49,716 nucleotides of DNA, from NCBI GenBank assembly GCA_036340075.1, contig JAYYZJ010000011.1:1-49716 (forward strand). The letters run 5' to 3'. This DNA comes from Thermodesulfobacteriota bacterium (GTDB lineage Bacteria > Desulfobacterota_D > UBA1144). The position numbers were made by a program, and so were the translations under genes. The notes under the pieces were generated by a model. That model did not search any database. It saw only the letters and a program-made list of their open reading frames with translations, and was not told the DNA's origin. Positions 32,659 through 49,716 of the stretch are shown one piece after another (within the stretch, counting starts at the first letter, position 1; every line of letters begins with the position of its first letter).

Positions 32659-32663
32659 GTGTA
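32659..32663 (+). promoter_or_regulatory. GTGTA motif, putative late promoter
   Basis: AAGTGTATA in the 17-nt gap before ATG 32676. Confidence 0.5.
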
Positions 32664-32675
32664 TATGTATAAGAT

Positions 32676-33527
32676 ATGAATTTAAAAGTAATACTCATGA
32701 CAAAAGACGACAAGGAACTGATTGAGCCTTGGTTATTATATCATGGAGAACGAGTGGGTTATGAAAATCTACATATAGTTGATGATAGCACGGATCTCGA
32801 TATAATTAATTTTTATAAAAATCACGCGCACTTAAATTTCAATTTACATAGAGATTTAAGTGGACATCGAAACTTAAATAACATGGAGGGTTGTTTTGCA
32901 GAAATACAAAAATCTATATCAGAGAACGATGTTTATTTTTTGAAAATGGATACAGATGAATTTCTTGTTCATATTGAAGATGAAAAAATATCATGTGATA
33001 TAAGTCAAGTAAAGAAGGCTATAGATATTGAAAATGAAAATTTTTCTATTCCAAACGATTTTATAAATGCAAAATTAGATTATTTAAAATCAAAAAACAC
33101 TAACTTACTTGAAGGGTTACATTTCTATTGTAATAAACGAGGCAATTACAAAAGGACATTCTCAAAGTCTGAACATATAAATCTTGGAGGTCATGTAAAA
33201 TCTCTTACAAACAAAAGCAAGAATTTAAACGTATTACACTTTAGGTACAAAAGGTTTGAAGATCATTTTGATCTTGCTAAGAAAGTATGTGTATCCCATA
33301 ATTATATAAATGAATACGATGATGATCAAACTATAATAAAAAAATTATCAGTATTTAGCGGTCCTTCTTGCAATTCTAATCATAAATCAAAATTCGTGCA
33401 TGATTCTTTATTACATAAAGATTTTAAAGAAAAATACTATCAAGAACACAATAATAAATCTCAAGTTATATTTTATGATGGTTTGCATAATTGGTATAAA
33501 GAAAAGAGTGATCAATTAGCATTGTAA
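32676..33527 (+). CDS. GT2-like glycosyltransferase (Glyco_tranf_2_4 type)
   Basis: MTKDD...WLLYH...IVDDSTD...MDTDEFL...LHF. Confidence 0.75.
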   Translation: MNLKVILMTKDDKELIEPWLLYHGERVGYENLHIVDDSTDLDIINFYKNHAHLNFNLHRDLSGHRNLNNMEGCFAEIQKSISENDVYFLKMDTDEFLVHIEDEKISCDISQVKKAIDIENENFSIPNDFINAKLDYLKSKNTNLLEGLHFYCNKRGNYKRTFSKSEHINLGGHVKSLTNKSKNLNVLHFRYKRFEDHFDLAKKVCVSHNYINEYDDDQTIIKKLSVFSGPSCNSNHKSKFVHDSLLHKDFKEKYYQEHNNKSQVIFYDGLHNWYKEKSDQLAL

Positions 33528-33697
33528 CATAATTTACGAAAAATTCAAATCAAAAATTTGAAAAATGTTTTTTTCGTTTATAATTCTTATTGATATATAT
33601 AACACTTATGATAACTTTTATATATAAATATTAATAATATTATAATATATATATAATTATGTGTAATTATCAACTTATTAACAAATCAATTTTTTCC

Positions 33698-33726
33698 TTG
33701 AAAATATTCATGAAATTTGTTATGAT
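33698..33726 (+). promoter_or_regulatory. Sigma70-type promoter of nrdA
   Basis: TTGAAA-17 nt-TATGAT with TGn extended -10, 12 nt before the ATG. Confidence 0.75.
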
Positions 33727-33738
33727 ACAATCACAATT

Positions 33739-36171: not shown

Positions 36172-36194
36172 ACCTAGATTTTTCATTGTTTTAT

Positions 36195-36199
36195 GTGTA
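36195..36199 (+). promoter_or_regulatory. GTGTA motif, putative late promoter
   Basis: TATGTGTAA, 12 nt before ATG 36212. Confidence 0.5.
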
Positions 36200-36211
36200 A
36201 ATTAGCTCTAG

Positions 36212-38008
36212 ATGAAGTACACACAAAAAATTGCAGTATTCTATCCCTGCACCTATACCGAGTATAAAAAAGGAGACTTACACACTGCTACAGAAAAATT
36301 AATATCTAGCAAACCCTCCTTAGAATATTCTTTTGATTTATTTTTTATATTCAATAAACCTAGCGCAGATAACTACAACTCTCTGCTTAAGTTTGAATCT
36401 AGAAGTGTTATAAATTCGGTTTACATTCATTCTCTAAATCTTTCGGAAGAAGAAGATTTATATGTTCAAACTTGGAAATCAAAAAAAGACCTACCCTCAC
36501 CAATACCCCCTCACGGTTTAAGTTCTGGTCCAAATTTATCTTTTTACAATAGTTTATACTATTTACTTTCACACTCAAATGAATACGACAACTTTTTACT
36601 AATAGAATCTGACGTTCAATTTACTAAAACTCATTGGTTTGATAAATTATTAGAATTTTGCAATGAAGATTTTTTAATTGCTGGTTCCAAATACAAGGGG
36701 TTAAATGAATGGCATAATCAACTAGATTATAAAGATCATTTAAATGGAATAGCTATTTACAAAAACTCAATGCATCTTTACTTTCTTTTAAAAGAATCTG
36801 AAGAATATCTTATTCAATCTGTAAATAATGGAACTTTATTTATCAACTTCGATATTGCTATAGACGAGTGGAGGAGATCAGAACAAGGTAAAAAGTTTTT
36901 TAAAAAAAGCCCCCCACTAATTGACACCCATTTTATCACAAATGCTAGCGATCCAGTTGACGCAAACTTAACGCTACCAGAAATACTTCACCTACATCCA
37001 GAAACATGCATACTTCACCATAAAACAGGTAGAGATAACACATCTTTTGCTTTTGAATCTCAAGGAGCTGAATCCAAAGATGATTTACAATTTTCAGCTC
37101 AATCAAAAATAAACTCTATAAAGTTTGAAAACCCAAATAACTTAGAACATTCAAACTTTCAAAAATTACCTATTTTTTTCAATGTCCCTCAGAATGCTGG
37201 TTCTTATATCACTAGTAAAATATTTTTATACTTAAGAGCTTATAGGGATAAATTCAATCTCAAACATTTATTTGGATTAAACAAAGAGTCTATATTCAAT
37301 CTTACAATTCACAAAGACTCAATACCTATTTTTACAATTATAGGTTCTGATAGTAAAAGCGTTTTAGATGCAAATGAAAATATCATTCATAATAGATCTA
37401 TAGAATACCAAATGGAATTTAATGATTTTTCCCAAGACTTATTGAAAGATATTTTTACTTTTTGTTTAATTGTAAATCCAAATGGTTTTAATATTTTTGA
37501 TGAAATAGTATCTCCAGACTTTGATTCTTACAAAAAATATCCCTTCTTAGTATTAAGAGATCCCTTTGAAAGAGTAAAATCAAAATATTCTTACAAAAAC
37601 GAAAGGCCAGATTTTTCAGATTACTTGCAAAGCTGCAAATATGAAGACTCTTGGTTAATAAGAAATTTATTGAATGTTCGTTTAAATGTTGATTTAGATA
37701 AAATACACTTTGATTTAACATCTTCCATTTTAGAATATTTTAAAGTTTTTAGTTTACCTCAAAATAGATGCTCTAAAATTTCTCAAGAACTTGATTATTT
37801 TTTAGATAAATGTTTTACAGAGTGTTGGAGTGTAAGCTCTACAGATATCCACCCTGATTGGCTATTAGAAGAAAATGTTTTAGTATATAAATCAAATGAA
37901 AACTCTTTAAACATTAATTTAAGTGAACTCCCACAAAATACTCAAGAAAAATTTTTAATTCACACTAATTTTTCAAATAAATTGTACAAAAAATTTTTAA
38001 CAGTGTAA
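36212..38008 (+). CDS. Two-domain protein: glycosyltransferase-like N-terminus plus sulfotransferase-like C-terminus
   Basis: N-terminal SGPN...LIESD...HLNGIAIY; C-terminal FFNVPQNAGS (5'-PSB-like, Lys replaced by Gln) and LRDPFERVKSKY (3'-PB). Confidence 0.55.
   Translation: MKYTQKIAVFYPCTYTEYKKGDLHTATEKLISSKPSLEYSFDLFFIFNKPSADNYNSLLKFESRSVINSVYIHSLNLSEEEDLYVQTWKSKKDLPSPIPPHGLSSGPNLSFYNSLYYLLSHSNEYDNFLLIESDVQFTKTHWFDKLLEFCNEDFLIAGSKYKGLNEWHNQLDYKDHLNGIAIYKNSMHLYFLLKESEEYLIQSVNNGTLFINFDIAIDEWRRSEQGKKFFKKSPPLIDTHFITNASDPVDANLTLPEILHLHPETCILHHKTGRDNTSFAFESQGAESKDDLQFSAQSKINSIKFENPNNLEHSNFQKLPIFFNVPQNAGSYITSKIFLYLRAYRDKFNLKHLFGLNKESIFNLTIHKDSIPIFTIIGSDSKSVLDANENIIHNRSIEYQMEFNDFSQDLLKDIFTFCLIVNPNGFNIFDEIVSPDFDSYKKYPFLVLRDPFERVKSKYSYKNERPDFSDYLQSCKYEDSWLIRNLLNVRLNVDLDKIHFDLTSSILEYFKVFSLPQNRCSKISQELDYFLDKCFTECWSVSSTDIHPDWLLEENVLVYKSNENSLNINLSELPQNTQEKFLIHTNFSNKLYKKFLTV
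38003..38007 (+). promoter_or_regulatory. GTGTA motif overlapping a stop codon, putative late promoter
   Basis: CAGTGTAATA, 14 nt before ATG 38022. Confidence 0.4.
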
Positions 38009-38021
38009 TAAAAAATAGATT

Positions 38022-38738
38022 ATGAAGATATATACTTACTACGAAGACATTAATTTTAAAGTTCAAAATCCGCTGGTCAACATATGGAAGAAAAGCTGGG
38101 AAAACCAAGGTTTTGAAGCTATAGTTTTAGGTCGGGCTGACGCAGAGGAGCATGATTTTTATGGAGAATTTGTATCGAGACTTGAAAAACTACACCTCGA
38201 TATTATAGAAAAACCTATACAACCTTATGGCATGAGTTGTTATTTAAGATGGTTAGCCTACGCAAATACATTAGACTCAAATTCATTTGTTAGCGATTAT
38301 GATGTTATTAACGTTAAACTTCCATCAAACCAAAGCTTACCAAATAGATTGATGTTTTATGATAATTGCTGTCCATGCTTTGCTTCTGGCACTAGTAAAC
38401 TTTTTATGCAATTTTGTTTTGATATTTTAAATATTAGCGAGCGAAACTTAATTGATTTAAAAAATAAAAAAATTGAACCTTGGTATCACGATCAAGAATT
38501 TATAGTTAATAACGAAAATGAATTTAAAAACTTAGATTATGTAACAATGGATAACAGAGATCCGATGCAAAGATTAATTCAACAATACGAGCATAAAAAT
38601 CCTTTTATTGAAAACAACTCTAAGGTTCTTCATTTTTCCCACGGTTCAATAGGACATGCTAAAGAAAATTTTCCAGAGCTTAAAGATGAGAACTCAGATG
38701 AACTTAGAGTAAGTTTGATAAATGATGCCTTAAAGTGA
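38022..38738 (+). CDS. Putative glycosyltransferase (DxD type)
   Basis: WKKSW...CYLRWLAY...SDYDVIN...HDQE...HFSH. Confidence 0.55.
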   Translation: MKIYTYYEDINFKVQNPLVNIWKKSWENQGFEAIVLGRADAEEHDFYGEFVSRLEKLHLDIIEKPIQPYGMSCYLRWLAYANTLDSNSFVSDYDVINVKLPSNQSLPNRLMFYDNCCPCFASGTSKLFMQFCFDILNISERNLIDLKNKKIEPWYHDQEFIVNNENEFKNLDYVTMDNRDPMQRLIQQYEHKNPFIENNSKVLHFSHGSIGHAKENFPELKDENSDELRVSLINDALK

Positions 38739-39400
38739 AAGTTTTAGTTTCTATATTAACTAGTAGCTACACTCAAGCTCAAGCAGATTCTTGTATAGAT
38801 ACTTGGGTTAAAGATATTAAAGATCCTCATGAATATATTTTCTACGGAGATAAACTTCAATCTCTAAATTTAATTAATACTATAAATTGTTCTCCAGATT
38901 CAGGAGAAAGTAGATCTAGATTACCAGAAAAAACTTTAAAAATGCTTAGATCATCACTCAGATATGATTGGGATTTTTTATTTAAATGTGATGACGATAC
39001 ATATCTTCATTTTGATAAACTTGTAAAATATCTTAAGAATTTTGATAGCTCACATTCACTATACATTGGTAATAAAATATTTAACCACGGCATTAAATAC
39101 GCTCAAGGCGGGGCTGGATATATACTAACAAGAAGCTCGGTAATAAAATGCATAAACTCTTTAGAAAAGTTTTTCTCAAACCCTAAAGAAACTAAAATAG
39201 CTGAAGATTATTCTGTGGGTAAAGCTCTTCATGTTGAGGGTGTAGAACTACAAGCATGCAATGAACTTGTATGCCCATCGCCCAAAAATGTAAAAATAGA
39301 CAGTACAATTCCAGCGAAACATATTATTGAATCAGGTAAAATATCAAGTCATTATGTTACCCCTGAAACAATGAGATTTATTTACAACACAATGCAATGA
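38735..39400 (+). CDS. GT31 (Fringe/beta-1,3-galactosyltransferase-like) glycosyltransferase
   Basis: DTW, FLFKCDDDTY, LYIG, YAQGGAGYIL, AEDYSVG, SSHY; GTG start overlapping the previous stop. Confidence 0.8.
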   Translation: MKVLVSILTSSYTQAQADSCIDTWVKDIKDPHEYIFYGDKLQSLNLINTINCSPDSGESRSRLPEKTLKMLRSSLRYDWDFLFKCDDDTYLHFDKLVKYLKNFDSSHSLYIGNKIFNHGIKYAQGGAGYILTRSSVIKCINSLEKFFSNPKETKIAEDYSVGKALHVEGVELQACNELVCPSPKNVKIDSTIPAKHIIESGKISSHYVTPETMRFIYNTMQ

Positions 39401-39990
39401 TTTCCTTAAAACATAAGTATATATTTATTCATATTCCTAAGTGCGCTGGTTCAACTATTGAAGATACACTACAAGAAGATAGTTGCATTTTAAGAAAAAA
39501 TACTTGGCCTAATAACTTAAAAGTTCCTTATCCCTTAAACCACTTAACGCTAGATGACATTAAAAACTCAAAAATAATTTTTCCTAATTTTAGTGCGTTT
39601 TATTCATTCACTTTTACTAGAAACCCTTTTGATAGATTAGTTTCAGAATATTTTTACCTCAAAAAAAGACTAAAAAAATTACCTAATAATACCAAAGAAG
39701 GTTTAATATTTTTATCTAATAAAAGTGAAAATGGAATAATGGGCAACCACTGCATGCATCAACATAAATTTATTAATGACAATATTAATTATGTTGGAAA
39801 GTTTGAAAATCTCCAAGAAGACTTCAACATTATTTGTGACAAAATTGGAATCCCAAAACAACAACTTCCACACTCAAACAAAAGCAAACACAAACACTAC
39901 ACCGAGTACTACGATGATGAAACAAAACAAATTGTTGCAGAAAAATACGCACGAGACATTGAGTGTTTCGGTTATGAATTCGGAGAATAA
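39397..39990 (+). CDS. Sulfotransferase (Sulfotransfer_2 family)
   Basis: FIHIPKCAGSTI and RNPFDRLVSEY PAPS-binding motifs. Confidence 0.9.
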   Translation: MISLKHKYIFIHIPKCAGSTIEDTLQEDSCILRKNTWPNNLKVPYPLNHLTLDDIKNSKIIFPNFSAFYSFTFTRNPFDRLVSEYFYLKKRLKKLPNNTKEGLIFLSNKSENGIMGNHCMHQHKFINDNINYVGKFENLQEDFNIICDKIGIPKQQLPHSNKSKHKHYTEYYDDETKQIVAEKYARDIECFGYEFGE

Positions 39991-40557
39991 ATTATGAAAT
40001 TAATTCGTACACAATATAGAGTTTCTACAGAATATGGTCATCCCTACAAGTTTGTATATTTTGTAATTCATAAAAATGGAACTCGGTCTATTTTTAATTT
40101 GTTTAATTTTAAACAAGAGTCTTTCAAGTTTTACGATCCTAATATGTACAAAGATTATTTTACTTGGACAATGGTAAGGAACCCGTGGGATAGACTGGTT
40201 TCTGCATACATAAATAAAGCTTCAAAAAAATATGGTCCTTGGAGTAAATTTGAAAACCTAACATTCTCAGATTTTATTTATAATAAAGAAGGGATAGAAA
40301 ATAGTCATACTTGTATTCAGAATACTCAAATACCACCTGATATAGACTTCATAGGAAAATATGAAAACTTCCAAGAAGACTTTGATATAATCTGCGATAA
40401 AATTGGAATTCCACGACACGAACTTCCACACAAAAATGCTTCAAAACACAAACACTACACCGAATACTACGATGATGAAACTCGTCAAATCGTTGCGGAA
40501 AAATACGCAAAAGACATTGAGTATTTCGGATACAAATTCGGAGAATAAATTATGAAA
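39796..40557 (+). repeat. Two 204-bp direct repeats (39796-39999 and 40354-40557)
   Basis: Colinear, closely similar 3' ends of both sulfotransferases, including identical TTCGGAGAATAAATTATGAAA across the stop and the next start. Confidence 0.85.
39994..40548 (+). CDS. Sulfotransferase (Sulfotransfer_2 family), paralogue
   Basis: YFVIHKNGTRSI, VRNPWDRLVSAY, shared C-terminus. Confidence 0.88.
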   Translation: MKLIRTQYRVSTEYGHPYKFVYFVIHKNGTRSIFNLFNFKQESFKFYDPNMYKDYFTWTMVRNPWDRLVSAYINKASKKYGPWSKFENLTFSDFIYNKEGIENSHTCIQNTQIPPDIDFIGKYENFQEDFDIICDKIGIPRHELPHKNASKHKHYTEYYDDETRQIVAEKYAKDIEYFGYKFGE

Positions 40558-41286
40558 ATTATAGAACAAAATGGAGTTTTCTTTCCTGACGACGTAAAAA
40601 CCGATCATCAAAAGTTTATACCAGGATCGGAAATATATAAAAAATACATGAAACACATACTGCAAACCCTTGCAGATTTTCATGAATTTGCAGAGAATAA
40701 CAACATAATTTATTCACTCAGTGGTGGTTCACTAATGGGTTATTTCTGGAATAAAGATATAATACCATGGGATGACGATATAGATATAATGCTTGGTGAA
40801 AAAGATTATTTTTTGGTAAAAGAAAAGTTGTGGGAAGCAGGATCGCATATGGGTAAGCCAAAATTCAATTGGGGGTGGAACTCAAAATTCTGGAGAAAAA
40901 CTCCTATTTGTGGAAAAGATTATATATTCTCGCCTAACCATATAAGCTATACAAAACCAACTGAAGAAGGGGGCAGGCATTTACTTAAACTCATACCTAT
41001 AACTAACTTAGAAAAAAATTGCGCAGGCGGACTAGATATTGGTTTGTGTAAACGACTTAAAAACGGAAAACATAAAGAGTATTGGACACCAGGCAGAACT
41101 TGTTGTGGCCCAACTGATAATTTTAACAGGGACTTGTGTCCACTTGTTTCTTTTGCGGGAATCACAACAAGAGCAATAGTAAAAAGCTTTGCAACACCTC
41201 ATCTGGATGAAGTTTACGGTAAAAAATGGGTAATTCCAAGCCATCCAAGAATTAAACGCTTTTATAATGTAGAAGATTATAGATAA
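40552..41286 (+). CDS. LicD-family phosphotransferase
   Basis: GGSLMG...IIPWDDDIDI...LDI...LDEVYG. Confidence 0.85.
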   Translation: MKIIEQNGVFFPDDVKTDHQKFIPGSEIYKKYMKHILQTLADFHEFAENNNIIYSLSGGSLMGYFWNKDIIPWDDDIDIMLGEKDYFLVKEKLWEAGSHMGKPKFNWGWNSKFWRKTPICGKDYIFSPNHISYTKPTEEGGRHLLKLIPITNLEKNCAGGLDIGLCKRLKNGKHKEYWTPGRTCCGPTDNFNRDLCPLVSFAGITTRAIVKSFATPHLDEVYGKKWVIPSHPRIKRFYNVEDYR

Positions 41287-41310
41287 ATAACAAAATAACT
41301 AATAACAATC

Positions 41311-42027
41311 ATGAACAAAATAATATGGATGTGCTGGTTTCAAGGCTCTAATCATTGGTTAATGGGTAATTTCATGCGCCTTTGTATTTATAGGTGGAAA
41401 ACATTAAACCCAGATTGGAAAGTAATTGTTTTATGCGATGAAACAATTTCAAATTACGTTCCTGAGTATTTTCGCATTATAAATAATTCTCCTGATAGAA
41501 GAATTCAGCATAAGTCTGACTTATTACGATTACTATTATTATCAAAGTATGGAGGAGTATGGGCTGATGGAAGTCTATTTCCGATGAAACCACTATCTTC
41601 TTTCTACAACAAGATAGTCAATAAAACTGGTTTTTTCTCATACCGCTTTTTACCTAGACATAGAAGGCGAGAAACAGTCGTGTGGTTTTTATGTTCAAAA
41701 TTTCCAAACAACTATCTAATTAAGAAATGGAAAAATAAATTCGTAAAAAAGTTTAAAGAAAAAGCTAAATTCGGATACTACGAAATGGCATTTACCCTGT
41801 CTGAACTATATGACACAGATAAAAAAGTAAAATCCATCATAGATAATATGGTACAAATTAGTGAGAAATTACCTCACTCAGCTATGAAGAGTTGGAAAAA
41901 AAGAAAAAAAACATATATGTATAAGAGACCAAATAGAGATGAACTGGTCAAAGATCTATATTCAAAAAAAGAATTTAAAAAAATTATTAAAAAATACAAA
42001 GAATTTTATCAAGATAAAGATAAATGA
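41311..42027 (+). CDS. Capsular polysaccharide synthesis protein (Caps_synth/GT32-like)
   Basis: KIIWMCWFQG, NPDW, SDLLRLLLLSKYGGVWAD. Confidence 0.85.
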   Translation: MNKIIWMCWFQGSNHWLMGNFMRLCIYRWKTLNPDWKVIVLCDETISNYVPEYFRIINNSPDRRIQHKSDLLRLLLLSKYGGVWADGSLFPMKPLSSFYNKIVNKTGFFSYRFLPRHRRRETVVWFLCSKFPNNYLIKKWKNKFVKKFKEKAKFGYYEMAFTLSELYDTDKKVKSIIDNMVQISEKLPHSAMKSWKKRKKTYMYKRPNRDELVKDLYSKKEFKKIIKKYKEFYQDKDK

Positions 42028-42461
42028 AAACGGGAATAACATTCTCAACTTTTGATCTTCTTCATGCGGGTCATATAGCAATGCTAAAAGAAGCTAAGCA
42101 ACATTGCGACTATTTAATTTGCGGTTTGCATGTTGACCCTCAAGTTGAACGTCCAGAAAAAAACAGTCCAATTCAAAGCGTAGTGGAAAGATACCTCCAA
42201 CTATCTGCCGTAAAATATGTAGATGAAATAGTACCCTATAATTTAGAAAAAGACCTTGCAGATATATTATTAACATTCCCAATTAATATTAGAATAATTG
42301 GCGCAGACTATAAAGACACAGATTTTTCAGGCAAACAACTTTGTATTGATAATAATATAGAAATCTATTATAATAGTAGAAGCCACAACTTTTCTAGTAG
42401 CGGATTAAGAAAAAGAGTTTTTAATGAAGAAGAAAAAAATAATAAGCAAAAAAGAACTTAA
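42024..42461 (+). CDS. Glycerol-3-phosphate cytidylyltransferase-like (TagD family)
   Basis: STFDLLHAGH, VKYVDEI, RSHNFSSS. Confidence 0.85.
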   Translation: MKTGITFSTFDLLHAGHIAMLKEAKQHCDYLICGLHVDPQVERPEKNSPIQSVVERYLQLSAVKYVDEIVPYNLEKDLADILLTFPINIRIIGADYKDTDFSGKQLCIDNNIEIYYNSRSHNFSSSGLRKRVFNEEEKNNKQKRT

Positions 42462-42684
42462 ACAAGCTTTAGAGTTAAACAATAAAATACTAAAGCTTTT
42501 TCCAGACAGTGATTCAATGCACTCAACCTACAATCATTTATCTAATTTTATTTCAGAAAGAATTAGAACTTTTGAACAATTTAAGGATAATCCTTATAAG
42601 ATGCATACTTCTGCAGCAAAATTTAATTCAGATAAAGAACTTGACTTAGGTGAATACATACAAGCCTTTAGACATGATCCTTAG
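42424..42684 (+). CDS. Hypothetical protein
   Basis: 86-aa ORF filling the gap before rmlB. Confidence 0.55.
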   Translation: MKKKKIISKKELKQALELNNKILKLFPDSDSMHSTYNHLSNFISERIRTFEQFKDNPYKMHTSAAKFNSDKELDLGEYIQAFRHDP

Positions 42685-42689
42685 TATAC

Positions 42690-43619
42690 ATGAACCTATT
42701 AGTTACAGGAGGCTTAGGTTTCATTGGCAGTAATTTTATTGAATATATATTCAATAAATATAATTACAATATTCACAACCTTGATTTAAAAACATATGCG
42801 GCAAACTACGATAATATAAGTGAAGAAATTAAAAAATCAGGAAGGTATACTTTATCGATTTGCGATATTAATGACTCTAATCGCGTCAAAAATTTAATTA
42901 ACAAACAAAACATTAATTATATTGTTAATTTTGCAGCTGAAAGTCATGTAGATAATAGCATAAATAACTCTGCCCCTTTTATAAAAACCAATATAAACGG
43001 AACGCACTCCTTATTGAGCTTACTTCACGATTGCCCAAGTATTGAGAGATACCTTCAAGTATCTACAGACGAGGTTTATGGCAGTTTACATGAGGGCGAT
43101 AATGCCTTTACTGAAAATAATCCACTACAAGCTAATAGCCCTTATTCTGCAAGTAAAGCTAGTGCAGATTTATTATGCCGCAGTTTTTATGAAACTTTTA
43201 ATTATCCTATTTTAATTACTCGCTGCTCAAATAATTACGGACCTAATCAACATGAAGAGAAATTAATTCCATTAATGATTAAAAACGCTAAGGAAGGTAA
43301 AAAACTTCCTGTTTATGGAGATGGTAGAAATATTCGCGACTGGATTCATGTGTCAGATCATTGTTCAGGAATTGATGCAGTTCTACATAGAGGTAAAATA
43401 GGAGAAGTTTACAATATTGGCGGCAACAATGAACTGCGCAATATTGATATAGTAAAAACTATTCTTAAATTACTCGATAAAAATGAAGATCAAATAGAAT
43501 TTGTAAAAGATCGATTAGGTCACGATTGGCGCTATGCAATTGATAATACTAAAATAAAAAACGAATTAAATTGGTTTCCTAGTGTAAATTTTGAAGAAGC
43601 ACTAAAACAATTACTATGA
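42690..43619 (+). CDS. rfbB: dTDP-glucose 4,6-dehydratase
   Basis: TGGLGFIGSN, FAAESHVD, VSTDEVYG, YSASKA, RCSNNYGP, DRLGHDWRY. Confidence 0.95.
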   Translation: MNLLVTGGLGFIGSNFIEYIFNKYNYNIHNLDLKTYAANYDNISEEIKKSGRYTLSICDINDSNRVKNLINKQNINYIVNFAAESHVDNSINNSAPFIKTNINGTHSLLSLLHDCPSIERYLQVSTDEVYGSLHEGDNAFTENNPLQANSPYSASKASADLLCRSFYETFNYPILITRCSNNYGPNQHEEKLIPLMIKNAKEGKKLPVYGDGRNIRDWIHVSDHCSGIDAVLHRGKIGEVYNIGGNNELRNIDIVKTILKLLDKNEDQIEFVKDRLGHDWRYAIDNTKIKNELNWFPSVNFEEALKQLL

Positions 43620-44170
43620 ATAAAAGGAAACAAGTTGTTATCACGGGGACAGGAAGAGCAGGTACAACTTTGCTTGTAAGTATTTTTACAAAACTAGGTA
43701 TGGAGACAGGTTTTTGTAAAGAGCATGTTGATTCTGTTCTGAATACTAAATCAAAAGGCGGTTTAGAGAAGAGACCCGAGGATCATACACCCCATATAAT
43801 TAAATCTCCATTTTTTTATAATAAAACGGCTATGTTAAAAAACGCCGAACATGTAATAATTCCAATTAGAGATTTGAAAGATTCAGCAAAAAGTCGAGCT
43901 AGAATTGGACAGGGTAACGGTGGATTTTGGGGAAAAGCAAAAGATGTGGAATCTCAAATGAAGTTTAATTCTGAAGTAATATACTCACTAATGTATATTT
44001 TGAGTGAATTGGATGTTCCATTTACATTGATACAATTCCCTAGGCTAGCAAAAGATGCAGATTATTTATGGAAAAAATTAAATTGGCTTTTTGAGGATTA
44101 CAATATCACTCCCGATAGATTTAAAAAAATTTATGGTGAAGCTATTAATAAAAGCTACATTCATTTTTAA
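43616..44170 (+). CDS. Sulfotransferase-like P-loop protein
   Basis: ITGTGRAGTTLL, IKSP, IPIRDL..SA.SR. Confidence 0.6.
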   Translation: MNKRKQVVITGTGRAGTTLLVSIFTKLGMETGFCKEHVDSVLNTKSKGGLEKRPEDHTPHIIKSPFFYNKTAMLKNAEHVIIPIRDLKDSAKSRARIGQGNGGFWGKAKDVESQMKFNSEVIYSLMYILSELDVPFTLIQFPRLAKDADYLWKKLNWLFEDYNITPDRFKKIYGEAINKSYIHF

Positions 44171-44181
44171 ACTAATTAAAT

Positions 44182-44619
44182 ATGAACAAAGAAATAGTAG
44201 GATTCACTGCAGGTAACTTCGATCTCTTACATCCTGGTTACATTTACACATTTGAAGAGGCTAAACGTCATTGTGACCGTTTTTTAGTTTTTCTTCAAAG
44301 AGATCCAAGCGCCACAAGGTTTACAAAATACAAACCTGTCATACCATATTATGAACGTTACAAAGCATTAATGGCTATAAAGTATGTGGACGAGGTGTAT
44401 ATGTATCAAACTGAGGAGGAACTGGTGGAATTAATAAAATTCTGGAAACCTGATATTCGTATACTTGGAGAAGATTACATTGGTAAAAGTTTTACTGGGG
44501 ATGATTTACCTCCCCGTGTAATATATACTACTCGTTCGCATGAATGGTCAACTACTCGACTCAAAGATCTAATAACTAAACAAACAATAAAGCAAAACCC
44601 TGATATTTTAAACAAATAA
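44182..44619 (+). CDS. Second TagD-like cytidylyltransferase (HPGY variant)
   Basis: GNFDLLHPGY, IKYVDEV, RSHEWSTT. Confidence 0.8.
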   Translation: MNKEIVGFTAGNFDLLHPGYIYTFEEAKRHCDRFLVFLQRDPSATRFTKYKPVIPYYERYKALMAIKYVDEVYMYQTEEELVELIKFWKPDIRILGEDYIGKSFTGDDLPPRVIYTTRSHEWSTTRLKDLITKQTIKQNPDILNK

Positions 44620-44651
44620 ACTAACACTTTAACATTATATGAATAAACATT

Positions 44652-45236
44652 ATGATTAGAACTAATATTATTAATAAATTAGCCAGCGAAATAAACGCGC
44701 AAACTTACCTAGAAATTGGTGTTAGAGATCACCATTTAAATTTTGATAAAATCAACATTGCAAATAAAATTAGCGTTGATCCGCATGTTCATGATAGAGA
44801 GCCTAGCTACAAAATGACATCTGACGATTTCTTTAAACAGAACAAAGACACTTTTGATATCATTTTCATTGATGGGTTACACGAATCAGAATACGTAGAA
44901 AGAGATATTAATAATTCCCTCAAGGTGTTAAACGATAACGGTTTTATAATTTGTCACGATATGAATCCTACATCAAAAGAAATGCAAATTGTCCCCCCAA
45001 TACAAAATACATGGACTGGTGATTGCTGGAAAGCTTGGGTTAGAACAAGATCATTAAATCCAAACGTTAAAATGTTTGTCGTAAATACGGATTGTGGCTG
45101 TGGAGTTATACAAAAAGGTGCTCAACAACTACTAGACACAAAAGGTCTAGAATTAACATATGAAAATCTAAACTCAAATAGAGAAGAGTGGCTAAATTTA
45201 ATCTCTGTAGATGATTTCCTAAAAGCACAATTATGA
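44652..45236 (+). CDS. Class I SAM-dependent methyltransferase (Methyltransf_24-like)
   Basis: YLEIGV, SVDP, TSDDFF, FDIIFIDGLH, HD. Confidence 0.85.
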   Translation: MIRTNIINKLASEINAQTYLEIGVRDHHLNFDKINIANKISVDPHVHDREPSYKMTSDDFFKQNKDTFDIIFIDGLHESEYVERDINNSLKVLNDNGFIICHDMNPTSKEMQIVPPIQNTWTGDCWKAWVRTRSLNPNVKMFVVNTDCGCGVIQKGAQQLLDTKGLELTYENLNSNREEWLNLISVDDFLKAQL

Positions 45237-45838
45237 TAATAACAAGTGATAATTGGAACGTGTTTATTGAAGATAATTTATCTCATTATAACAAGGCAAT
45301 AATAAATGGTAAAGGTCCAAGTTTCAAACCTATTGATAACCCAATTGACAACACATTAATTACTTGTGTAAATGATTGCTTTCACGCTAGCAATTATACT
45401 GACCTTCTTGTTTGTAATGACATAGAATTTATAGAAAGAATTGATCATTCAAAACTTAAAGCTTTAAAATATTTAGCTGTACCCAATAAAATTCACAAAG
45501 GAGGAATTGCACAAGATGACGTTTCATACTTAAATGTTATTGAAATTGTCAAAAAATCTTTCTTTGGAGATTTAATTGTCTACAATTTAAAAGATCAACC
45601 CAAAAATAATAATTTTATATCCTTACCAACATATCTTTCTAGCTGTCATACTGCTGCAGATATAATTTCATTAATCCCAAATATACAAACTGTAGATATT
45701 TATGGGGTTGGCGGAGAAGGTTATTCAAAATTAATACCAACACCGAAAGTTAAAACATTGTGGTGTCCAAAAATGATAAGAGGCGGCTTAGATTTAATAA
45801 AAAACTCCTTGCAGGGCAAAACCGTTACAACACATTAA
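45233..45838 (+). CDS. Maf/DUF115-like or sialyltransferase-like (GT29/GT42-type start) ulosonate transferase candidate
   Basis: AIINGKGPS, TCVN, ND, SS..TA, VDIYGV pattern. Confidence 0.5.
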   Translation: MIITSDNWNVFIEDNLSHYNKAIINGKGPSFKPIDNPIDNTLITCVNDCFHASNYTDLLVCNDIEFIERIDHSKLKALKYLAVPNKIHKGGIAQDDVSYLNVIEIVKKSFFGDLIVYNLKDQPKNNNFISLPTYLSSCHTAADIISLIPNIQTVDIYGVGGEGYSKLIPTPKVKTLWCPKMIRGGLDLIKNSLQGKTVTTH

Positions 45839-45856
45839 TTATATTAAAATTTAATT

Positions 45857-47227
45857 ATGAATTTTTTAAAAAAAGTAAACGAACAGCAAAGTTGTTGTAT
45901 AGCTATTGATTTTGACGGGGTAATCCATAAAAACTCAAAAGGCTATCACGATGGCACAGTTTACGATAAGCCTGTTTATGGCACTCTTAAATCTTTAAAA
46001 TTAATTTCTGAGCATTACAAAATTATTATTTATTCCTGCAAAGCTTTACCTGACAGACCTCTTTTAAATGGTAAAACAGGTATCGAATTAATTTGGGATT
46101 GGCTAAAAAGTCACAACCTTGATAGCTACATCCATGAAGTGACAAGTTCAAAACCTCGGGCAGCTTTTTACATTGATGACAAAAACATTGAATTTAAAAA
46201 TTGGAATCAAACTTTAAATAAACTTTTTAATAATGATATTAAAATATCAGCTTCAGTCATTGAAAACCAAAACTTATTAAAAGATTTATTTACTTATAAT
46301 TTGTTTGATATAGATTATTTACACATAGATTGGTTTTCAGAAACTGACATAACGGAAGAGCTAAATTTAATTTCTAACTTCTCTTGCATTCCAATGGATT
46401 TTCATGTCATAGGATACAATGACATAGTTGAAGAAACAGTACTTAAATATAAGCCTGACAGTTTTTGCTACCAATACAATAAAAATGACCTAAGCAAAAT
46501 TATAACATCAACAAAAAAAATTAAATCCAAGGGCATTAATGTTGGTATATCTCTCTGTATAGATGATGATTTCAGCTTTTTGAAAAAATATGATTTTTTT
46601 GATTTTATCATGATCATGAACACAACCCCTGGAGTATCTGGTCAAAAACTTGACATCAATAAGTCAAAAAATTACCTTAATCAAATTTTATCTAAGCATG
46701 AAAAATTTAAAATTAGAATTGACGGAGGAATTGATAAAGACTCTATCTTGGATTATAAAGATTATAAAGTAGATGTATTTGTTAGTGGTTCTTATATTAG
46801 TGGCAAAAATCAATTTTTAAATATTCTCAATCTACATGGAAAGCAAAAATATTTGTCTCGAAAAATTAATAAATATGTCAAAAAAAGTCAATTTGTCATT
46901 TTAGATTATAATGATCTCTCTCTTGACATTGTTGTTAATGCTTTAAATAAATATCAAACAGGATTTGTTGTAGTTAAAAAAAATGAATTCCTCTACGGGG
47001 TAATTACAGATGGAGATATTAGGAGAAAAATTAATCAAACTTTCACTTTGGATGATTTAATCAATAAAAATCCAGTATATTGTTTTTTTAATTCCACAGT
47101 TGAAGATTTTCTTAACACAATACAAGAAAAAAACTGCCTAATTAATTTTGTTCCAGTTGTCAATAAAAACAAAATTTTAGTAGGTTTAATCGACACAAAA
47201 CAAGTTATTAATAACTATGCAAAATAA
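45857..47227 (+). CDS. Fusion: HAD phosphatase + ribulose-phosphate 3-epimerase-like barrel + CBS pair
   Basis: IDFDGV...YIDD (HAD); HID, DFHV, MNTTPGVSGQK, IDGGI, FVSGSYI (Rpe); GVITDGDIRR and PVVN...LVGLI (CBS). Confidence 0.8.
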   Translation: MNFLKKVNEQQSCCIAIDFDGVIHKNSKGYHDGTVYDKPVYGTLKSLKLISEHYKIIIYSCKALPDRPLLNGKTGIELIWDWLKSHNLDSYIHEVTSSKPRAAFYIDDKNIEFKNWNQTLNKLFNNDIKISASVIENQNLLKDLFTYNLFDIDYLHIDWFSETDITEELNLISNFSCIPMDFHVIGYNDIVEETVLKYKPDSFCYQYNKNDLSKIITSTKKIKSKGINVGISLCIDDDFSFLKKYDFFDFIMIMNTTPGVSGQKLDINKSKNYLNQILSKHEKFKIRIDGGIDKDSILDYKDYKVDVFVSGSYISGKNQFLNILNLHGKQKYLSRKINKYVKKSQFVILDYNDLSLDIVVNALNKYQTGFVVVKKNEFLYGVITDGDIRRKINQTFTLDDLINKNPVYCFFNSTVEDFLNTIQEKNCLINFVPVVNKNKILVGLIDTKQVINNYAK

Positions 47228-48038
47228 ATATCAAAAAGACCACCCAAACCACAAATCCTCTATTTCTATATCAAATGATATAACAATAGGCAACCCCGAC
47301 CAAACAATTTTTATATCTGGGCCTTGTTCGGTTGAAAGCATTGATCAATTAGAAGTTACAGCAGAAAATTTAATTAAAAATAATATAAAAATAATCCGCG
47401 CTGGATGTTTTAAGCCGCGCACAAACCCTTATTCTTTCTTTGGGTTAGGGTCTGAAGGCTTAGATCTGCTTTGCGATATAAGGTCTAAATATGGGTTAAA
47501 AATTATTACAGAAGTTAGAGATTCTTCTCATGTTGACGAAGTTATTGAAAAGTCTGATATTGTGCAAATTGGCGCCAAAGCAATGTGGGACTATGGAATC
47601 ATGGAAGCTTGCGGCAAAAGCAATAAACCAGTTTTACTCAAGAGGCATTTTGGAGCTACTGTTACTGAATTCTGCAAAATGGCTGAATTCATTTTAAATT
47701 ATGGAAATGAAAATGTAGTTTTATGTGAAAGAGGCATAAGATCATTTGGCACTGAAACTAGATTCACACTGGATGTTTGTGGCATAGAGTGGCTAAAAGC
47801 TAATACACATTTACCTATTATCGTTGACCCTTCTCATGCTATGGGTTACAGGTATGCAATCAAAAATTTAGTACTAGCCAGTTTAGCATTAAATGTGGAC
47901 GGTATTATGATAGAATCGCACCCAAGTCCAGAAAATGCAAAATCAGATGCAGATCAACAAATACCTTTATGCGAACTAGAAAGTATTATTCAATCTTCTA
48001 AAACTGTTCTATCCTCAATTAATAAAGAATTAATATAA
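47217..48038 (+). CDS. Class I-beta DAHP synthase (KdsA superfamily), no regulatory domain
   Basis: GPCSVES, FKPRT, QIGA, KPVLLKR, LCERG, VDPSH, ESHP...SDA. Confidence 0.88.
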   Translation: MQNKYQKDHPNHKSSISISNDITIGNPDQTIFISGPCSVESIDQLEVTAENLIKNNIKIIRAGCFKPRTNPYSFFGLGSEGLDLLCDIRSKYGLKIITEVRDSSHVDEVIEKSDIVQIGAKAMWDYGIMEACGKSNKPVLLKRHFGATVTEFCKMAEFILNYGNENVVLCERGIRSFGTETRFTLDVCGIEWLKANTHLPIIVDPSHAMGYRYAIKNLVLASLALNVDGIMIESHPSPENAKSDADQQIPLCELESIIQSSKTVLSSINKELI

Positions 48039-48683
48039 ATGAAAATCCTAGGATTTGTACCTGCTAAGAGCAATAGCTCTAGGTTAAAAGATAAAAACAT
48101 GTTACCAATTAACGGTAAACCTCTTTTTATCAATGCAGCTGAAAATTTAGCTAAAGTTATTCCAAGAGAAAATATTTACATTGACACCAATGATGATAAA
48201 TATATATCTTTAGCACAAAATAATGGTTTTAATTTTATTAAAAGATCATTAAATCAAACCAGTAATTCATTTACTGGTAATGATTTATTAGGATGGGAGC
48301 TATCCCAAGTAGAATGTGATATAGCCATTCAACATCTACCTACAATGCCCTTCCTTAAACAGTCAACCCTTCAAAAAGGTTTAGATTCTGTAATAAGTCG
48401 TTATGATTCAGTTTTATGTCACTATTTCGACTCATTTTACACTTGGACCGATGAAACTCCAAATTATAATATCAAAAGCTTACCGAACAGTTTTGAGTTG
48501 CTTCCCACTAAAATTGAAGGAATGGGCTTATATATAGTTAAGTCTAAATCTTTTAACGAACATAAAACTAGAGTATGTGGTCGCATATTTAATTTAAAAT
48601 TAGACCATTTTGAAAGAGTGGATATTAACTATGAACAAGATTATCTATTTGCCAAATCAATTTCTAAATCCTTCGTCTCATGA
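48039..48683 (+). CDS. Acylneuraminate/Kdo-type cytidylyltransferase (NeuA/KdsB family)
   Basis: PAKSNSSRLKDKN...GKPL, PTMPF, G.YI, VDINYEQD. Confidence 0.85.
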   Translation: MKILGFVPAKSNSSRLKDKNMLPINGKPLFINAAENLAKVIPRENIYIDTNDDKYISLAQNNGFNFIKRSLNQTSNSFTGNDLLGWELSQVECDIAIQHLPTMPFLKQSTLQKGLDSVISRYDSVLCHYFDSFYTWTDETPNYNIKSLPNSFELLPTKIEGMGLYIVKSKSFNEHKTRVCGRIFNLKLDHFERVDINYEQDYLFAKSISKSFVS

Positions 48684-49336
48684 ACAACTATTGGTTTAAA
48701 AAATTTTTTATCGAAGAACTCTCAGAATCTTACTCAAGTGGAGTTTTTTCCGATGAGCTAGATAAGTTAGGCTATAACAAACAAGTTATTAATAACTGGA
48801 AAATTAATAATTCTAAAAATCGACTTTTTGGTAGAGCTAGAACCATGACTCTCGAAACCGTGAAAACTAGTAATGAAGAGATTCAAAAAGGTTTAGGTTT
48901 TTTATCTAACCTCGACTCAGGAGATATACTCGTTGTAAGTGGTAGTAATGATTATGCTTATTTTGGGGAGCTCATGACACGTATATCGATTCAAAATAAC
49001 CTTGGTGGAACAATTATCGATGGTCTTACTCGAGACACATATTACACACAGGATTCACAATACCCTGTATTTGCCAAAAATTACTCACCAGTTGATATAA
49101 AAGGTAGAGGTAGAGTAAACGAGCTAGATGTAACCATAGAAATTGACGGAGTTTCTATTTGTTGTGGTGATTATGTTTACGGGGATAGTGATGCAGTTGT
49201 AGTTATTCCTCAGGAAATTTTACATAAAGAGCATAGCAAGTTCAACGAAGTTGTCAAGCAAGAGGAAGATATTAAACGTATGATAAATGATAATAAATCT
49301 ATCACTGAAATATTACAAATAACAAAAGAATTTTAA
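48680..49336 (+). CDS. RraA-like/HMG aldolase family protein
   Basis: SDELD, GRART, GDILV, AYFGELM, IDGLTRD, GDYVYGDSDAVVVIP. Confidence 0.85.
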   Translation: MNNYWFKKFFIEELSESYSSGVFSDELDKLGYNKQVINNWKINNSKNRLFGRARTMTLETVKTSNEEIQKGLGFLSNLDSGDILVVSGSNDYAYFGELMTRISIQNNLGGTIIDGLTRDTYYTQDSQYPVFAKNYSPVDIKGRGRVNELDVTIEIDGVSICCGDYVYGDSDAVVVIPQEILHKEHSKFNEVVKQEEDIKRMINDNKSITEILQITKEF

Positions 49337-49353
49337 TAAACTATTTAAAGCTT

Positions 49354-49716
49354 ATGTACATTATACTAGGTAAAAACGGATATATAGCAGAAGCTATAAT
49401 TAAAGAATTAAAGTCACGCGATTTACCTCATATTGCTTGGAGCAGGAATGACGTAAACTACTTGGATTATTTCACTTTGAAAAGTGAAATAATTAATATT
49501 AAAATCAATAATCATTTATCAGATGTAATTTCATCTCAAAGCATAAAAGTTATTAATTGCGCTGGTTTTATAGGAAAGCCCAACGTTGATGCATGTGAGC
49601 TCGCTAAATCTGACTGCATAGAAGGTAATGTTTTACTCCCTCAAATGCTATCTCTATTATCTCTTGAAATGAGTTTTACTTTTGTCCAAATATCTTCAGG
49701 TTGCATCTACGGAGGT
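49354..49716 (+). CDS. RmlD-like NDP-4-keto-6-deoxy-sugar reductase (NRS/ER type), 3' truncated
   Basis: Not in the ORF track. Translates as MYIILGKNGYIA...INCAGFIGKPNVDACE...GNV...QISSGCIYG and is open to the window end. Confidence 0.8.
   Translation, partial: MYIILGKNGYIAEAIIKELKSRDLPHIAWSRNDVNYLDYFTLKSEIINIKINNHLSDVISSQSIKVINCAGFIGKPNVDACELAKSDCIEGNVLLPQMLSLLSLEMSFTFVQISSGCIYGG

Follow-up and report, generated by a model that had tools for sequence, protein, structure and literature searches.

Synthesis of the acidic eight-carbon sugar 3-deoxy-D-manno-octulosonate (Kdo) is regarded as a universal KdsD-KdsA-KdsC-KdsB route and is a drug target. An aldose phosphate is formed, condensed with phosphoenolpyruvate (PEP), dephosphorylated and activated with CTP to CMP-Kdo. 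Here we analyse a run of five genes in a 49,716-nt stretch of DNA, hereafter the window, which is contig JAYYZJ010000011.1 of the assembly GCA_036340075.1 (Thermodesulfobacteriota bacterium). The window is the entire contig C11 of a 12-contig, 0.96-Mb bin and appears, from its gene content, to belong to an uncultured tailed marine phage of a novel lineage. With slightly more confidence than doubt, we read the five genes as a variant CMP-Kdo pathway that the phage carries complete, together with a transferase, the product of which would most likely be the C8 acid Kdo and not the C7 acid 3-deoxy-D-arabino-heptulosonate (DAH). The gene set follows the canonical order of reactions and shares with it a CBS pair on the first enzyme, a PF00793 synthase, a HAD phosphatase and a CTP_transf_3 cytidylyltransferase. 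However, a Rpe-fold barrel takes the place of the SIS domain of KdsD, and the synthase, unlike KdsA, is of the class I-beta lineage of DAH 7-phosphate (DAH7P) synthases (DAH7PS), with KPRT and no KANRS, and reaches 110 bits against the KdsA profile (cut-off 314). In place of a YrbI-type KdsC, the set has a small BT0820-like HAD that is joined to the first enzyme; the cytidylyltransferase falls far below the KdsB cut-off, and RraA-like and Maf-fold genes are attached to the set.

Kdo genes occur in giant viruses. Among phages, the cyanophage S-SCSM2R carries a canonical kdsA-kdsB pair (PMC12801897). Both it and the window phage are marine phages with genes for Kdo synthesis and activation among many cell-surface glycan genes, as far as the accessible part of that report describes them. 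The same part of the report presents KdsA and KdsB as canonical and the host as bearing lipopolysaccharide (LPS), and mentions no isomerase or phosphatase (PMC12801897), whereas the set in the window is non-canonical and apparently covers all four steps; the S-SCSM2R KdsA is 26.5% identical to the window synthase as a tblastn hit. Mycobacteriophage virions are O-glycosylated (Freeman et al., 2023, as cited in PMC12619734). What the available portion of PMC12619734 describes has in common with the window the phage-encoded glycosylation enzymes and the Ser/Thr/Pro-rich C-termini on structural proteins; the sugars and the enzymes, as given there, are different, and a virion acceptor for the window phage would be a hypothesis by analogy. 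In the literature that we searched, no paper describing a Rpe-CBS/DAH7PS-type Kdo route was found.

Results

A coupled five-gene run that recurs in other loci

The five open reading frames (ORFs) lie on the same strand (Table 1): 18 nt separate the first two, the second and third overlap by 11 nt, the third and fourth abut, and the last two overlap by 4 nt; a methyltransferase gene upstream (44652-45236) overlaps the first of them by 4 nt. The original prediction had described a coupled run of a Maf/sialyltransferase-like gene, a HAD-Rpe-CBS fusion, a class I-beta synthase, a NeuA/KdsB-like CMP-transferase and an RraA/HMG aldolase, and domain profiles agree with these labels, that of the first gene being a separate case treated below.

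Table 1. Coordinates of the features discussed, in positions of the window.
Feature	Coordinates	Strand	Basis
Maf / MptE-like / sialyltransferase-fold protein, 201 aa, proposed CMP-ulosonate transferase	45233..45838	+	predicted fold
HAD-Rpe-CBS fusion, whole ORF	45857..47227	+	
Small HAD phosphatase domain, N-terminal, proposed ulosonate-phosphate phosphatase	45857..46240	+	weak profile matches
Rpe-fold (ribulose-phosphate-binding barrel) domain, proposed arabinose-5-phosphate-forming enzyme	46238..46828	+	PF00834
C-terminal CBS pair, type found on KdsD/KpsF/GutQ	46874..47227	+	PF00571
Class I-beta DAH7PS-lineage synthase of the 'module' clade, 273 aa, proposed KDO8P(-like) synthase	47217..48038	+	profiles, tree
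KPRT motif (K66-T69)	47412..47423	+	AAG CCG CGC ACA, read directly
QIGAKAMWDYG (Q117-G127), clade signature	47565..47597	+	alignments
CTP_transf_3 cytidylyltransferase (KdsB/NeuA/PseF superfamily), 214 aa, proposed CMP-ulosonate synthetase	48039..48683	+	PF02348
RraA-like / HMG-CHA-aldolase-family protein, 218 aa	48680..49336	+	PF03737, 93.7 bits (cut-off 24.5)
Surrounding glycan block	31672..49716	+	runs to the contig end; the genes under study are its last five complete genes

Co-occurrence of these genes elsewhere had been named as a test of the original prediction, and the set does recur. Our comparison loci were one IMG/VR viral contig (L003) and metagenome contigs; a scan of viral contigs with a single protein gave 0 matches and a scan with an alignment gave one contig. 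L003 has, in the same order as the window, genes for HAD, Rpe-CBS, synthase (46% identical), cytidylyltransferase (46%) and RraA-like protein (41%), and L004 repeats this order with a synthase that is 66% identical. The set is partial or reordered in four more loci, namely L014 and L019 (cytidylyltransferase, HAD, Rpe-CBS, synthase), L005 (RraA, Rpe, synthase) and L009 (Rpe-CBS, synthase and a cytidylyltransferase, 42% identical to that of the phage, fused to a KdsC-family phosphatase); a Rpe-CBS match was present in 62 of 80 metagenome loci. Since L003 and L004 repeat the gene set and the four others have it in part or in another order, we consider the run to be beyond chance, and this recurrence supports the proposed logic of a Kdo-like pathway with exchanged enzymes, the end product of which, a CMP-activated 3-deoxy-ulosonic acid, is passed to a glycan. 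In the phage collection, tblastn with the synthase found only bacterial-type AroA on short 'phage' records and the canonical kdsA of two phages.

Alternatively, the phage might carry the synthase as a plain auxiliary metabolic gene, to raise the output of aromatic amino acids, with glycan genes as unrelated neighbours. Current names point that way, since databases call the whole clade 3-deoxy-7-phosphoheptulonate synthase and genes of this kind are entered under auxiliary metabolic genes in PHROG 5045. We nevertheless regard it as very improbable. The order with phosphatase and cytidylyltransferase is conserved across viral and cellular contigs, and a phosphatase adjoining the synthase argues against a shikimate role because it would destroy DAH7P. 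As the original prediction had stated for the window, no shikimate-pathway family was found among the ORFs scanned, and the binned host has a DAH7PS of its own, with a ferredoxin-like (FL) domain, 1.4 kb from aroB (L174). The rejection of an aromatic auxiliary role in that prediction is therefore upheld by co-occurrence, by the attached phosphatase and cytidylyltransferase and by the host enzyme.

A DAH7PS-lineage synthase with motifs of its own

KDO8P synthases carry KANRS and DAH7P synthases KPR(S/T). The window synthase has KPRT, encoded exactly where it had been reported, and both KANRS and QIPAFLCRQTD are absent from it. It scores 216.6 bits on DAHP_synth_1 PF00793 (cut-off 25.5) and 288.4 bits on TIGR01361 (cut-off 267.75), and 110-116 bits on KDO8PS models (KdsA TIGR01362, 110.3 bits, cut-off 314). 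The closest solved structures are the class I-beta DAH7PS of P. furiosus and T. maritima (1zco, 4c1k, 1rzm; E 1e-62 to 5e-68), at bit scores more than twice those of KDO8PS, and in common with them are the Cys/His/Glu/Asp positions, KPRT and the PEP-site Lys and Arg positions. K66, P67, R68 and T69 are invariant in the alignment of relatives (A1), as are C37, H207, E233 and D244, which we take to be the metal-site Cys, His, Glu and Asp of class I-beta DAH7PS. The P. furiosus enzyme is said to accept five-carbon sugar phosphates.

Other conserved positions set the window clade apart from these structures (QIGARNxQN to QIGAKAMWD, KRG(M/I)S to KRxFG, TRN to TRF and SDGxQ to SDAxQQ), and the genomic partners of the clade are of Kdo type, not shikimate type. 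The nearest relatives (55-73% identity), all named 3-deoxy-7-phosphoheptulonate synthase in databases, all read QIGAKAM[WY]D at the position of QIGARNxQN in the DAH7PS of P. furiosus and T. maritima. A motif table and tree gave three groups: canonical KdsA, with KANR(T/S) and QIPAFLCRQTD; bona fide DAH7PS, with GARNxQN, KRG(M/I/L)(S/A), TRN and SDGxQ, to which the enzyme of the binned host belongs; and a 'module' clade (39 rows, support 98/88) with KPRT, GAKAM[WY]D, KRxFG, TRF, HAMG and SDAxQQ. The window synthase reads QIGAKAMWD, KRHFG, TRF and SDADQQ, and so lacks the shikimate-linked motif forms, which are found in the aroB-linked host enzyme and in Bacteroidota paralogues (L175, L186-L189, also L176 and L177). 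Within the module clade it falls in a short-form subclade (18 rows, support 100/99) that is nested among 332-aa Bacteroidota forms, and the active-site signature is identical in short and long forms. We conclude that the enzyme is not a member of the KdsA family, although it probably works like one. In many Bacteroidota a class I-beta gene is found 5-7 kb from kdsA; such genes were also considered as module-type, but the four examined are bona fide DAH7PS types.

The cellular version and the distribution of KdsA

We collected 80 loci from GTDB genomes, of which 72 had enough upstream DNA. Rpe-CBS lies directly upstream of the synthase in 63 of these 72 species loci, and in 42 of the 63 a HAD gene also lies directly downstream. 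This cellular HAD belongs to the KdsC/YrbI family (TIGR01670, 144-145 bits, cut-off 106.95), and the trio is flanked by housekeeping genes. The Bacteroidota trio and the window have the same synthase clade (51-58% identity) and the same Rpe-CBS family. They differ in the synthase, which has an extra N-terminal domain of ~60 residues in Bacteroidota (332 aa, against 273 aa in the window), and in the phosphatase, which is YrbI-type and encoded downstream in the one and an N-terminal fusion in the other. With KdsB and WaaA encoded elsewhere in the genome, the Bacteroidota operon does without a cytidylyltransferase, an RraA and a transferase; the phage version adds to the cellular trio a cytidylyltransferase, an RraA-like gene and a Maf-fold predicted transferase of its own.

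Five module genomes (G001-G005) were examined by profile search. KdsB over its cut-off and the N-terminal domain of WaaA were found in 5/5, canonical KdsA in 0/5 (the best matches to the KdsA model being the module synthases, at 121-126 bits), KdsD/KpsF in 0/5 (only CBS parts match) and class II DAH7PS in 0/5. In two of them, G002 and G005, the only two PF00793 members are the module synthase and a fusion of DAH7PS with chorismate mutase (CM_2), so that by elimination the module synthase would be the KDO8P synthase. Forty further genomes with a clade synthase had KdsA in 3/40 and KdsB in 38/40, and for all 46 genomes with a clade synthase the counts are 3/46 for canonical KdsA and 44/46 for KdsB over cut-off. 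As background, we drew a sample of 121 genomes around G001, in which KdsA is present in 88 and KdsB in 91, with ~29 having neither. Rpe-CBS occurs in this sample only in G103, where KdsB is present and KdsA absent, and in 0 of the 88 KdsA-positive genomes. Besides G001 and G103, 87 of 89 KdsB-positive genomes have KdsA, the remaining two being G074, where the gene is split, and G082. Judged by this phyletic pattern, the module most likely replaces KdsD-KdsA-KdsC. One outlying locus (L143, G165) is in a metagenome-assembled genome (MAG) labelled Thioalkalispiraceae (Pseudomonadota), with a Bacteroidota-type trio, KdsB at 306.7 bits and no canonical KdsA; it reflects either gene transfer or a binning error.

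The original prediction had taken KPRT to mean a C7 product. In that case the synthase would condense PEP with erythrose 4-phosphate and the route would lead to CMP-3-deoxy-D-arabino-heptulosonate for a glycan, for which speak the motif itself, the TIGR01361 score above cut-off, the DAH7PS structures as best matches and a clade member in one genome (G148) that may be its sole DAH7PS. However, every module-clade row in the motif table carries KP..RT, including those that pair with KdsB and WaaA in genomes without KdsA and KdsD, so that the motif does not discriminate between C7 and C8 here, and five conserved motifs differ between the clade and aroB-linked DAH7PS. Cells have erythrose 4-phosphate from central metabolism, so that a dedicated enzyme to supply it would be superfluous, whereas no gene accompanies the synthase more constantly than that for Rpe-CBS; this favours C8 over C7. 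A C8 product is also favoured by the genomes with KdsB and WaaA in which the clade takes the place of KdsA and KdsD, and by the cellular partner phosphatase, which belongs to the family named for KDO8P and KDN9P. To our knowledge no glycan contains DAH. We therefore hold a C7 product to be unlikely; the chain length deduced from KPRT is not supported, while the fallback in the same prediction, an 'otherwise unusual' acid, persists as a rival that is taken up below.

The HAD-Rpe-CBS fusion

The first enzyme of the proposed route combines three domains. Its Rpe-fold part matches PF00834 Ribul_P_3_epim at 52.4 bits (cut-off 21.1) and falls below the cut-off of the TIGR01163 equivalog (55.2 bits, cut-off 212.6). 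In an alignment with the canonical Rpe of the host, H-x-D, D-x-H and DGG are kept, as are the phosphate-binding PGxSG and GS; the MDGhFVPN loop is replaced and shortened, and the His of vH.E is Gln. Among 119 family members, H156, D158 and H183 are each present in 118/119, D181 in 117/119, and D289 and Q206 in 119/119, and since the catalytic residues are kept across 117-119 of 119 members, enediolate chemistry is likely to be retained. At residues 206-208 of the fusion (46472-46480), the window is the sole member with Asn where 116/119 have Glu (QYE motif). The CBS pair scores 44 bits on PF00571 (cut-off 24), and the matches to TIGR00393 kpsF (E 2e-5, model positions 178-267) and GutQ (E 1.2e-4) are to the CBS part only, with no match to a SIS domain. 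A Bacteroidota Rpe-CBS orthologue matches KdsD NF008141 at E 1.3e-8 over positions 205-324 of 328, and for the CBS tail of the Rpe-CBS protein KdsD is the best among non-Rpe models. We propose the Rpe-fold domain as a functional stand-in for the SIS domain of KdsD that would form arabinose 5-phosphate.

The N-terminal domain matches the BT0820-type HAD model NF046079 (E 2e-4, residues 14-132) and PHROG 1238 (E 3.8e-13, residues 5-131), and its motifs can be read directly as DFDGV at residues 18-22 (the DxDx(T/V) nucleophile) and YIDD at 105-108 (the distal DD). TIGR01670 (KdsC/YrbI) gave no match for this domain nor for the free-standing homologues L004:976-1365 and L014:886-1272. Free-standing HAD homologues of 53-59% identity stand beside Rpe-CBS in L003, L010, L014 and L019, and L005 has a 58% HAD match just downstream of the synthase. 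With the HAD fused on, the window protein is longer than all 118 other Rpe-CBS proteins collected.

The cytidylyltransferase and the RraA-like protein

The cytidylyltransferase scores 44.2 bits on PF02348 (cut-off 22.6), 42 bits on PseF and 20.8 bits on the kdsB model TIGR00466 (cut-off 155.2), with PpNeuA (E 8.8e-6) and KpsU-type CKS (E 4.3e-4) as matches among solved structures. It is 42-49% identical to the synthase-adjacent enzymes of L003, L004 and L009, and the phosphatase part of the L009 fusion scores 131.8 bits on TIGR01670 (cut-off 106.95). The RraA-like protein has, among its NCBIfam matches, an archaeal hexulose-6-phosphate synthase/RraA fusion model, and its best structural match is the uncharacterised 3k4i (E 5.2e-17). 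Its gene stands beside the module in L003, L004 and L005, only with short-form, glycan-island versions, and in none of the 80 GTDB loci; it is a recurrent accessory of the module. A role for RraA as a regulator of host RNase E was considered and rejected as the principal explanation, the gene travelling with the module in L003, L004 and L005.

The pathway logic could be as proposed and the product a Kdo-like acid other than Kdo, that is, a stereoisomer of octulosonate or a further modified ulosonate. The Rpe-like domain would then be a true epimerase for an unusual aldose or ketose phosphate, and the cytidylyltransferase and RraA would be tuned to that sugar. The full epimerase catalytic set kept in the Rpe-like domain fits this idea, as do a cytidylyltransferase far from KdsB and as close to PseF/NeuA, an RraA-like gene that recurs only with short-form glycan-island versions (the window, L003, L004 and L005) and the status of the short forms as a separate, well-supported subclade. 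Against it, that subclade is nested in Bacteroidota forms that pair with canonical KdsB and WaaA, both forms have a common active-site signature, and the related cytidylyltransferase of L009, which adjoins a long-form synthase, forms one protein with a KdsC-family phosphatase. There is precedent for a second set without a new product in capsule loci, where KpsF and KpsU are extra versions of Kdo enzymes that serve the same sugar. We see a Kdo-like acid as possible, though not what we would expect, and this is the part of the earlier 'otherwise unusual' proposal that survives.

A minimal Maf/sialyltransferase-type fold

Sequence profiles placed the 201-aa protein in no Pfam, NCBIfam or PHROG family and gave no match to PF01973. 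An MptE-like match was found in only 1 of 78 relatives (E 0.0078), profile searches against PDB sequences gave chance matches only (E >= 0.49), and the protein atlas returned viral hypotheticals, with MptE-like as a mere 0.89 lead. An AlphaFold2 model built from the 78 relatives has a pLDDT of 94.3; one based on only 12 close relatives had reached 53.1 and was discarded. Foldseek returned nothing at E <= 0.001. In a structural alignment (VIA-align, residues 1-201), the model matches the Maf glycosyltransferase 5mu5_A at Z 12.8 (169 aligned residues, root-mean-square deviation 4.0), followed by the MptE HPPK 8sd5_A (Z 12.7), SteA (Z 9.5) and Cst-I 2p56_A (Z 8.5), with GT29 sialyltransferases at Z 7.5-8.5. 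The modelled protein encoded at 45233-45838 thus has a Maf/sialyltransferase-type fold, and its role as a transferase is predicted. MptE, a pterin pyrophosphokinase, scores equal to Maf, so that the fold alone is no proof of transferase activity. The Maf/sialyltransferase label of the original prediction stands by fold and finds no counterpart in sequence profiles.

With the Maf flagellin nonulosonic-acid glycosyltransferases (5mu5) and with GT42 and GT29, the phage protein has in common the core fold, a GxGPS-like loop (GKGPS, residues 26-30) and a neighbouring CMP-sugar synthetase. It differs in being the central domain alone, at 201 aa, and in its proposed donor, an octulosonate where theirs is a nonulosonate. 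On four IMG/VR contigs, relatives of the Maf-fold gene lie ~4.5 kb from a CTP_transf_3 gene. The contigs that carry relatives of this gene are 67-199 kb in length.

The binned host and the phage

The binned host (G000) is bacterial, with a 0.96-Mb genome of ~31% GC and a completeness of 92.9%; KdsA, KdsB and LpxC were not found in it at that completeness. A phage that carries all four steps and a transferase would be explained by an apparent host without KdsA, KdsB and LpxC.

Tailed-phage genes occupy 1-31 kb of the window and include genes for SSB, for a dNMP kinase and for a tape measure protein with a PhageMin_Tail domain. Sixteen structural or unknown ORFs in 299-29656 were compared with PHROGs and none could be placed in a family, and the tape measure protein is the sole structural ORF with a Pfam phage domain. 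The capsid-like protein had 0 tblastn matches in the phage collection (50,697 phage records), and blastn of the region against the collection also gave 0 matches. The phage lineage appears new because, apart from the Pfam domain of the tape measure protein, its structural ORFs have no PHROG, Pfam or phage-collection matches. The tape measure protein itself (6870-16391, 3173 aa) repeats the motif G(F/Y)(I/V/L/T)PN(F/Y/L) at least 8 times along its length, for example as GFIPNYAKP, GYVPNFGKF, GFIPNFARV and GYLPNFAKG.

The glycan block around the five genes encodes STELLO-like, GT2, Fringe-like, Caps_synth and LicD proteins, two sulfotransferases, two TagD-like cytidylyltransferases, a RmlB-like dehydratase, the methyltransferase and a RmlD-like protein whose gene is truncated at the contig end; a ribonucleotide reductase large subunit gene (33739-36171) lies within it. 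The Fringe-like (38735-39400) and STELLO-like (31672-32658) glycosyltransferases are of families more familiar from eukaryotes. The adjacent Sulfotransfer_2 genes at 39397-39990 and 39994-40548 are a tandem duplicate, with C-terminal ~70 residues that are nearly identical. The TagD-like (CTP_transf_like) cytidylyltransferases at 42024-42461 and 44182-44619 are paralogous and, together with LicD at 40552-41286, suggest a polyol-phosphate or phosphocholine-type decoration as well. Thr/Pro-rich stretches occur in putative virion proteins encoded by ORFs 715-1266, 3253-4560 and 16432-19716; the C-termini read ...APPTPT and ...ETPTPQPMATPTP, and the 1094-aa protein has a long internal TPTPT-type linker. 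By analogy, these tails could be O-glycosylation acceptors for the phage glycan block.

Discussion

The route that we favour, a phage-encoded CMP-Kdo pathway, would run in five steps. The Rpe-fold barrel with its KdsD-type CBS tail would make arabinose 5-phosphate from a sugar of the pentose phosphate pathway, either by isomerisation of ribulose 5-phosphate or by 2-epimerisation of ribose 5-phosphate. The DAH7PS-lineage synthase would condense arabinose 5-phosphate with PEP to KDO8P, as suggested by the phyletic replacement of KdsA, and the HAD domain at the N terminus of the Rpe-CBS protein would strip the phosphate. The CTP_transf_3 enzyme would yield the CMP-sugar, a role to which its family membership points, as does a related locus in which the cytidylyltransferase is fused with a phosphatase of KdsC type. 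Finally, the minimal Maf/sialyltransferase-fold protein, with a predicted fold and a proposed activity, would hand the sugar to an acceptor.

Several observations weigh against this reading. By sequence the synthase is a DAH7PS, with TIGR01361 above cut-off, KPRT and DAH7PS structures as best matches. Three genomes (G130, G148 and G159) have both a clade synthase and canonical KdsA, all three without an adjacent Rpe-CBS. In G148 the only PF00793 members are KdsA and the module-type synthase, which neighbour each other, so that the latter may act as DAH7PS; members of the clade may be promiscuous or differ in function. The locus in question (L131, G148:C14:277690-280464), in a Bacteroidales MAG, has a synthase with VGAKAMYDHG, TRF and SDAPQQ ~1 kb from canonical kdsA and has neither Rpe-CBS nor HAD. 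Marinoscillum luteum (G001, L113) has the synthase and a KdsC-type HAD, with no Rpe-CBS at E <= 1e-20 and no KdsD over cut-off, so that none of the genes found accounts for its arabinose 5-phosphate. In the Rpe-like domain both acid/base aspartates are kept, which fits a 1,1-proton transfer, as in an epimerase, better than a KdsD-type isomerisation. With a cytidylyltransferase at only 20.8 bits on the KdsB model and an RraA-like gene that a plain Kdo route does not call for, the phage version could be making a modified ulosonate or another one altogether. The genomes counted are mutually related and many are MAGs, so that the counts are not independent events, and the assignment of the phage to its host comes from binning alone.

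The fullest version of our proposal joins all of its parts: the phage of an LPS-less host would encode a complete non-canonical CMP-Kdo route with a new Rpe-fold step to arabinose 5-phosphate (possibly a ribose-5-phosphate 2-epimerase) and a KDO8P synthase with KPRT, and would use a 201-aa Maf-type enzyme for O-glycosylation of its own Thr/Pro-rich virion tails, while thousands of Bacteroidota 'DAHP synthase' annotations would be the missing KdsA. As a conjunction we consider it doubtful, this extension to Bacteroidota included.

If the module does work as a replacement, every database has the wrong name for two of its enzymes, calling one a pentose epimerase and the other the first shikimate enzyme, and genome-scale models of many Bacteroidota would wrongly be without Kdo synthesis. 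The KANRS/KPRT rule for substrate chain length would fail for this synthase clade, and the Rpe fold would gain a new enzyme activity. For viromes, matches to 'DAHP synthase' should have their neighbours checked before they are counted as aromatic amino acid auxiliary genes. For the phage itself, a virus would be bringing a whole activated acidic-sugar pathway and a minimal transferase into a host seemingly without one, which would point to glycosylation of the virion or of the host surface as the purpose of the glycan block.

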